Shown: positions 7,830 through 8,315 of the stretch, in pieces | How the letters are laid out: every line of letters begins with the position of its first letter | Numbering within the stretch: position 1 is the first letter of the stretch | From: Phoronis australis | Taxonomy: Eukaryota; Animalia; Phoronida | NCBI GenBank assembly: GCA_002633005.1 | Contig: NMRA01000063.1 | Span: 124,001-188,000, forward strand | Direction of reading: 5' to 3' | DNA length: 64,000 bases | Notes under the pieces: model-generated | Databases searched by the model: none | Seen by the model: the letters and a program-made list of their open reading frames with translations, nothing else | Told to the model about the DNA's origin: nothing | Position numbers and translations under genes: made by a program

Positions 7830-8315
7830 GTCATCGATGCACATACTCTTGAAACATGGCATTCAGTGTTTACAAATACAATCTTTTTGATGTAATGAAT
7901 TCATACAGAAAACCAGTGTAGACCAGTATAGACCATTGTAGACCAGTGTAGACCAGTATAGACCATTGTAGACCAGTGTAGACCAGTATAGACCATTGTA
8001 GACCAGTATAGACCAGTATAGACCATTGTAGACCAGTGTAGACCAATGTAGACCAGTGTACTGGTCTATGGAGTGCTTTGGCGGTTTCAATTTTTACCTC
8101 TTTTTCTCCAATTGTCTTTTTTTTGAAGTGATCATAAACGTTCTGAAAATTGTAAATTTTGGCTAGTTAACAAACCCCACCAGAACTAGTAGTTTTAATT
8201 GCTTAACATGTATAAAACAAACATTAATGGAGTCAATTAAAACTTATTTTTTGTGATATTAATGCTTCTCTTGAAGTTACTGGAGTCAAAAATTCAAGAG
8301 TATGTGCGTGGTGGC
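7830..8315 (+). promoter_or_regulatory. Predicted long-range intronic RNA duplex between GFPT exons D1 and D2
   Basis: GCACATACTCTTGAA (7839-7853) is the exact reverse complement of TTCAAGAGTATGTGC (8293-8307). It extends to 7830-7853 : 8293-8315 with G-U pairs and one bulged G. Confidence 0.7.
7912..8060. repeat. 10-bp tandem repeat with 30-bp higher-order structure between exons D1 and D2
   Basis: GACCAGTGTA/GACCAGTATA/GACCATTGTA, about 15 units. Confidence 0.95.

Follow-up and report, generated by a model that had tools for sequence, protein, structure and literature searches.

A long-range RNA stem predicted between the mutually exclusive exons D1 and D2 of a phoronid GFAT gene

The GFAT gene and its exons D1 and D2

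The window analyzed here is a stretch of 64,000 nucleotides (64 kb) of Phoronis australis DNA, whose forward strand carries two alternative penultimate exons, D1 and D2, of the gene for GFAT (glutamine-fructose-6-phosphate amidotransferase). Exon D1 (7630-7791) is of the S-M-H-I-A type and was located by tblastn, spliced reads and its place on the D1 side of an exon tree; exon D2 (8382-8543), identified by spliced reads, the tree and a protein match, has the form common to corals and human. D2 matches human GFAT1 (E 4e-18), its best named single-exon match is from Lingula (83%), and the SIS domain is recognized weakly in both exons. Each is 162 nt long and encodes 54 amino acids, both are in phase 0, and 39 of the 54 residues are identical between them. 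They are preceded by the 39-nt exon C (4316-4354, + strand), the 5' partner of both, which was found by tblastn, an exon scan and the read ends before 7630 and 8382, and followed by the last coding exon E (13968-14012, + strand), which holds the C-terminal loop and the stop and whose start is the read end behind both D exons. The intron between D1 and D2 is 590 nt long (7792-8381, + strand, GT..AG) and its donor is weak (GAT at the end of D1, followed by GTAAGC). Past this donor the reading frame runs on for about 32 codons until it meets a stop (window 7792-7890), a region in which the intronic read depth is below 1. Minisatellite arrays are found in the flanking GFAT introns (4442-4760, 9545-9683, 10790-11255, 12094-12222 and 12581-12811), and the window also contains a 770-nt run of N (54410-55179) and a single N at 19234.

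D1 and D2 are used one at a time, in agreement with the earlier note on this DNA. Among the raw stranded reads of run X6 over 7450-8750, exon C is joined to D1 in 19 reads and to D2 in 27, and exon E is joined to D1 in 21 and to D2 in 15. In X6, of which about 18% was examined (112 reads in this region), no D1-D2 joint reaches the threshold of 3 reads from 2 starts, which leaves room for at most 2 such reads if they come from distinct starts. Out of the runs X1 to X8, the junction data consist of the X6 reads, which carry the same species label, and of the X1, X3 and X4 contigs. The X4 contigs include both single-exon forms at depths of 143 and 139; both forms are thus seen in X4 and X6, and the D2 form only among the contigs listed for X3. 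Within the intron, read depth is 3-6x in 8110-8373 vs 0-3x in its flanks, with too few reads to interpret.

The same pattern is found in proteins. In a protein cluster of which 43 members were read, 41 span the exon region, and these are D2-type only (27), D1-type only (13; from Haliotis, Pomacea, Crassostrea and Lamellibrachia, and one Logan protein) or carry both (1). Models with both exons are those of Ridgeia, Pinctada and Elysia; all three are 'hypothetical protein' predictions and are probably annotation artefacts. The pair thus shows what is expected of tandem-duplicated mutually exclusive exons: homologous neighbors of equal length and phase, each joined to both flanking exons and neither to the other at the threshold used. 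D1 and D2 are a real and old mutually exclusive pair, and their exclusive use is common to molluscs and annelids.

The duplication is old, since D1 and D2 agree in the third codon position at only 14 of 38 identical residues. A tree of 48 rows, built on as few as 54 columns, has a branch (95/90) that separates all 16 D1-type exons from the coral, arthropod and D2 exons, and the simplest reading of these sequences would be a single duplication before the annelid-mollusc split. In six metagenome loci (L049, L054, L058, L063, L078 and L079) the sole D exon before E is D1-type, as if the lineage had lost D2. Exon B has been duplicated in tandem as well in two loci that also carry D1/D2 (L001:300-428 and 1549-1677; L037:3561-3689 and 4342-4470), and the window has one exon B. 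An alternative last exon of xDxPRxLLKT type, which combines with either D exon, occurs in molluscs and in a Ridgeia model (P0010, P0037, P0188, P0195, P0198 and P0001); it was searched for in the 64-kb window and was not found there.

The last residue of exon D aligns to human Asp667, and D1 and D2 have different residues immediately ahead of it. In human GFAT, Asp667 is described as pairing with Arg33 beside the catalytic C-loop (PMC7000685), and on this alignment the D1 and D2 isoforms may differ in regulation. Independently of the stem, the exon pair is an old switch that molluscs and annelids have in their rate-limiting hexosamine enzyme. GFAT D isoforms are present in RefSeq; papers on them were not found in the literature searched, which was mostly without subscription papers.

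An inverted repeat at both ends of the intron

The intron between D1 and D2 contains two perfect 15-nt reverse complements, 7839-7853 and 8293-8307, which the earlier note had described and which were exact on re-checking. Its extension to 23 bp also holds: a stem between 7830-7853 and 8293-8315 (+ strand) is predicted with pair probabilities of 0.85-1.0, beginning 38 nt past the D1 donor and ending 66 nt short of D2, as that note had placed it. An inner extension of the stem is predicted from duplex calculations between 7857-7868 (+ strand) and about 8278-8288, with probabilities of 0.92-0.98 for the listed pairs, and a part of the 3' arm (8293-8300) can also pair locally with 8268-8275. The looped-out part holds a 10-nt satellite of about 15 copies (7912-8060, + strand) with an inverted copy next to it at 8059-8069, and a second CTCTTGAA lies in the intron at 8268.

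The earlier note took such a match to be unlikely by chance, and this is upheld by shuffling: 15 nt are reached in one of 2000 dinucleotide shuffles of the intron, and in none of 2000 when the satellite is removed. None of the 105 real 590-nt tiles of the window exceeds 14 nt. Nevertheless, one more perfect repeat within 1 kb exists in the window, of 16 nt (53315-53330 and 53921-53936, 590 nt apart), and we therefore estimate the real background to be nearer 1% per intron. In that second repeat the minus strand is the stronger by 8 kcal/mol, and no direct repeat of more than 5 nt flanks it.

The fold check that the earlier note had called for gives a divided answer, since the end-to-end helix is predicted and the whole-intron fold is ordinary (z -1.23). 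The latter value was set aside as uninformative, the signal being the end-to-end helix. Among 59 GFAT introns, drawn from the window and from 24 metagenome loci without removal of near-duplicates, the end-to-end duplex of this intron has the lowest z, -4.4, and is matched by none of 60 shuffles; the next-lowest is -3.7, in a control intron of L001. Forbidding end-to-end pairs costs 18.9 kcal/mol (a clamp energy of -18.9). The 35 control introns, which measure 250-1500 nt and exclude six near-duplicate loci, give 0 to -10.8, and none of 38 end-shuffles is as low as -18.9 (minimum -5.2). The strongest control clamp, -10.8 kcal/mol, belongs to the intron between exons C and D of L065, which has a strong end-to-end stem.

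What speaks most for selection is the difference between the strands. The arms with 20-nt flanks reach -49.4 kcal/mol on the transcribed strand vs -29.4 on the other, whereas in 11 other perfect repeats of the window the strands differ by at most 8.0 kcal/mol (12 of the window's 20 repeats were compared, with short-spacer, satellite and two unlisted ones left out). This bias of 20 kcal/mol points to selection on RNA. All five substitutions in the paired extensions read as G.U on the transcribed strand, a biased count as the extension was defined on that strand. The core also exceeds the near-perfect run of at least 12 nt used to recognize functional long-range splicing structures (PMC6027157), with 15 nt perfect and 23 extended. 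The arms are invariant in the runs examined, the only listed variants being in the satellite, and no compensatory change was seen in these runs; RNA editing is not listed in the arms at a coverage of <1 to about 6 reads, and an Rfam search of 7500-8700 gave no match. Taken together, the stem is probably under selection as RNA.

A different result is obtained from relatives. In a metagenome scan that confirmed 238 stretches, of which the 80 best (79 loci) were kept, D1 and D2 stand in tandem in four loci, L001, L014, L037 and L050, with introns of 592-1415 nt. These relatives are distant and none of the four introns aligns with that of the window. None of the four has a significant end-to-end clamp (z 0.9, -0.7, 0.3 and 0.3); their clamp energies are 0.0, -1.1, -12.7 and -0.4 kcal/mol, of which -12.7 is matched by 10 of 33 shuffles, and their best helices are matched by 67-149 of 150 shuffles. 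An apparent clamp in L037 was rejected after shuffling, and the unlinked pair L028/L032 has no clamp (z -0.5). Conservation of the arms in relatives that keep both exons, on which the earlier note had made its reading depend, is thus absent in these 4 of 4 distant relatives, and the conservation in syntenic introns that is asked of functional structures (PMC6027157) is found in 0 of 4, the introns being unalignable. The exclusion mechanism of the common ancestor was therefore something other than this clamp. In yeasts, zipper stems are gained and lost even between Saccharomyces species (PMC12350175). With relatives as distant as these, the stem may still have a lineage-specific function.

Geometry of the predicted fold

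The branch-point consensus is yUnAy-like, and by this pattern three candidate branch adenosines were picked by eye at 8341, 8351 and 8362 (+ strand); the AG-free zone before D2 is 43 nt long. From the D1 donor to these positions the linker is 80, 90 and 101 nt when the core is paired and 63, 73 and 84 nt with the 23-bp stem. The earlier note inferred that looping out about 440 nt brings the donor sterically too close to the branch point. For the main stem alone this is not borne out, as the 63-84 nt left are above the steric threshold of about 50 nt given in PMC7969005 and PMC5740500, and inside the 42-85 nt modelled as spliceosome-compatible for yeast zipper stems by Rangan et al. (PMC12350175), whose modelled linker is no shorter than 42 nt, with the branch point 20 nt or more from the stem. 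The main stem alone should therefore not block splicing, and a steric block requires an outer helix that the earlier note did not name.

Such a helix is predicted. Its 5' strand (UGGCAG, 7801-7806, + strand) pairs with CUGUCA at 8319-8324 in conformer X, and it would leave linkers of 25, 35 and 46 nt. The helix is weak (6 bp): with the donor and the last 42 nt held unpaired its probability is 0.75-0.96, and unconstrained conformer X reaches only 0.018. With the donor open, a three-way junction of the outer helix, a hairpin at 7808-7822 and the main stem is predicted. In the rival, unconstrained fold the 3' strand is paired with 7821-7825 instead (through 8320-8324) and the donor is covered from +4 to +11 by hairpin A (7795-7818, + strand, conformer Y; probability 0.64-0.84 in the free intron and 0.48 with exon flanks). 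Hairpin A is exclusive with hairpin B (CACCAG/CUGGUG, 7808-7822, + strand). The latter was proposed in the earlier note and stands conditionally, with a probability of about 1.0 when the donor and the last 42 nt are open and 0.13 in the free intron. A further helix proposed there, between AACAAGT (7825-7831) and ACTTGTT (8327-8333), is complementary and has a probability of at most 0.01; if formed, it would give 40, 50 and 61 nt. Because competing states lie within 2-3 kcal/mol of each other, the predicted conformers are soft. Opening the D1 donor costs 8.0 kcal/mol vs 6.5, 7.0 and 5.7 for the D2, C and B donors. A hairpin behind the D1 donor, looked for as a conserved feature, has a low mean energy in the five paired loci, but its z is scattered from 0.4 to -3.6. 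Two further measures were dropped: a short folded distance from donor to branch point, which is below 50 nt in 23 of 24 control introns, and a 7-bp helix predicted to join the D1 donor to the beginning of D2, which is inconsistent across orthologues (-2.6 to -12.1 kcal/mol).

Other ways of keeping D1 and D2 apart were also looked for. Exclusion enforced by NMD is not indicated, because both exons are 3n and open and, as the earlier note had said, their joint inclusion (162 nt each, phase 0) stays in frame. There is no U12 donor by the consensus as commonly given, both donors being GTAAG in all five loci. A linear steric block is not indicated either, with AG-free zones of 43 nt here and 16-64 nt in the four orthologues. 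No docker-selector partner for either arm stands above background in the flanking introns, where outside partners reach -16 to -24 kcal/mol, as the background does, compared with -34/-35 for the cognate arm.

As an in-frame duplicated pair, D1 and D2 are like exons 2/3 of alpha-tropomyosin and 4a/4b of OGDH, for which a block of simultaneous U1 and U2 assembly below about 50 nt is proposed (PMC7969005, PMC5740500, PMC4165533). Those cases have a short linear distance and a long AG-free zone, whereas here the linear distance is 549-570 nt with a zone of 43 nt, so only folding could shorten it. In humans, linear steric distance is said to explain 9% of exclusive exon clusters, with many lacking a known mechanism (PMC5740500). 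In the two-exon cluster Dscam exon 17.1/17.2 (Yue et al. 2013), steric hindrance and RNA structure are said to act together; distant branch points are named there beside structure (PMC7969005), and none is indicated here. RNA pairing near exclusive exons is also described for Dscam 4/6/9, 14-3-3zeta, Mhc and srp (PMC6071210, PMC4691838). Docker-selector and bidirectional pairings, however, span exons and compete, while the GFAT arms both lie in one intron.

In FGFR2, both arms of the IAS2-ISAR stem lie in the intervening intron. That stem is reportedly conserved from urchin to human, whereas the GFAT stem was not found in distant relatives. Like the GFAT stem, it is intronic, spans a long range and is associated with two mutually exclusive exons (IIIb/IIIc), but it is described as approximating control elements for cell-type choice (PMC2471395). 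Yeast zipper stems of the RPS17B type, which join the donor-proximal and the branch-proximal parts of an intron, are similar as well, and the 63-84 nt linker falls within their 42-85 nt; the predicted outer helix would fall below this range. Zipper stems are compatible with the splicing of their own intron and can aid it (PMC12350175), whereas the GFAT D1-D2 intron was not seen spliced on its own.

Possible functions and origins of the stem

The observation of an RNA stem between exclusive exons is partly confirmed, with corrections, and the mechanism as first read is partly supported; its function is a prediction. The reading that we prefer, tentatively and at somewhat less than even chances, is a lineage-specific, multi-helix RNA clamp that would hinder the joining of D1 to D2 by way of the outer helix. 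The main stem would fold away about 440 nt and anchor the short outer helix; by this helix the D1 donor would be kept within 25-46 nt of the D2 branch point, and we infer that U1 at D1 and U2 at D2 could not assemble together on such a fold. The alternative fold, with the donor covered from +4 to +11, would favor D2. As the clamp is lineage-specific, it would supplement an older mechanism of exclusion, which is probably protein-based. If the stem does create a steric block, the rule of steric distance would extend to long introns, and a 590-nt intron is small enough for a direct test. No title on a stem-made steric block between exclusive exons was found in the literature searched, mostly without subscription papers.

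Another explanation, doubtful and second in probability to the clamp, is that a functional stem sets the ratio of D1 to D2, either by approximating regulatory elements as in FGFR2 or by covering and opening the D1 donor, with exclusion enforced by older protein-based repression. This would fit with an exclusive use common to molluscs and annelids despite the lack of a clamp in the four orthologous introns, with a main-stem linker that is compatible with splicing, and with the predicted competition of hairpins A and B over the D1 donor. The D2 form alone in the X3 listing, and both forms in X4 and X6, hints at regulation, but missing contigs prove nothing. The FGFR2 IAS2-ISAR stem activates IIIb and represses IIIc, as described in PMC2471395. 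What speaks against control of the ratio is that the cost of opening the D1 donor (8.0 kcal/mol) is not far from that of opening those of D2, C and B.

The third explanation, which we regard as unlikely, is that a fold-back or TIR-type element once inserted here (7827-8308), left a 9-nt target-site duplication and survives as a relic, tolerated since it is folded out of the way and otherwise neutral. The statement in the earlier note that no TSD is present is not strictly right, since a perfect 9-nt direct repeat, TGGTGGCAA, brackets the element at 7818-7826 (family D19) and 8309-8317 (both + strand). Repeats of at least 9 nt are found in about 0.7% of random flank pairs. Target-site duplications of 9 bp are known from Mutator-like elements. 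An insertion would also fit the AT-rich interior with its satellite and the restriction of the stem to this lineage; removal of 7827-8317 leaves a plausible 99-nt intron, and the repeated unit is a small imperfect palindrome, which could yield the outer pairings as a by-product. Against a neutral relic stands the strand bias of 20 kcal/mol, which would not be expected under neutral decay. The direct repeat is also offset from the arms: its right copy lies 1 nt beyond the right arm, but the left arm begins 12 nt inside the left copy. No second copy of the element was found in the 64-kb window; the left arm is crossed by one contig at flank depth in X1 and X3 and the right arm by one in X3 and X4, with no others on the arms at 85% among the contigs listed. 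The earlier note had also asked whether the arms are the TIRs of a multicopy MITE, and these read data argue against a young one, which is unlikely, while an old relic is possible.

Insertion and function might be combined, and this is quite improbable in our view. A fold-back insertion into a 99-nt intron could have been kept because its ends pair and loop it out, and the three-way junction that resulted would then be a two-state RNA switch in which the D1 donor is either covered (D2 used) or freed while U2 is denied room at the D2 branch point, which would lie too near (D1 used). If this is true, RNA folding alone would create the steric hindrance behind exclusion, a mode of which no test was found in the literature examined.

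Least probable of all is chance or local template switching without function: a 16-nt perfect repeat of similar spacing elsewhere in the window, the ordinary whole-intron fold and other signs of local duplication in the intron (the satellite, its inverted copy and the second CTCTTGAA) would agree with it, but it is opposed by the single success in 2000 shuffles, the lowest z of 59 introns, the strand bias and the position of the arms at both ends of an intron between exclusive exons.

A separate pairing was observed outside the intron. Two copies of one sequence upstream of D1, 7303-7319 and 7358-7374, are complementary to a single site at 8694-8709, 151 nt past D2 (-17.8 and -19.8 kcal/mol). 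Such a pairing would loop out both exons, and L014 has an 18-bp helix that is similarly placed.
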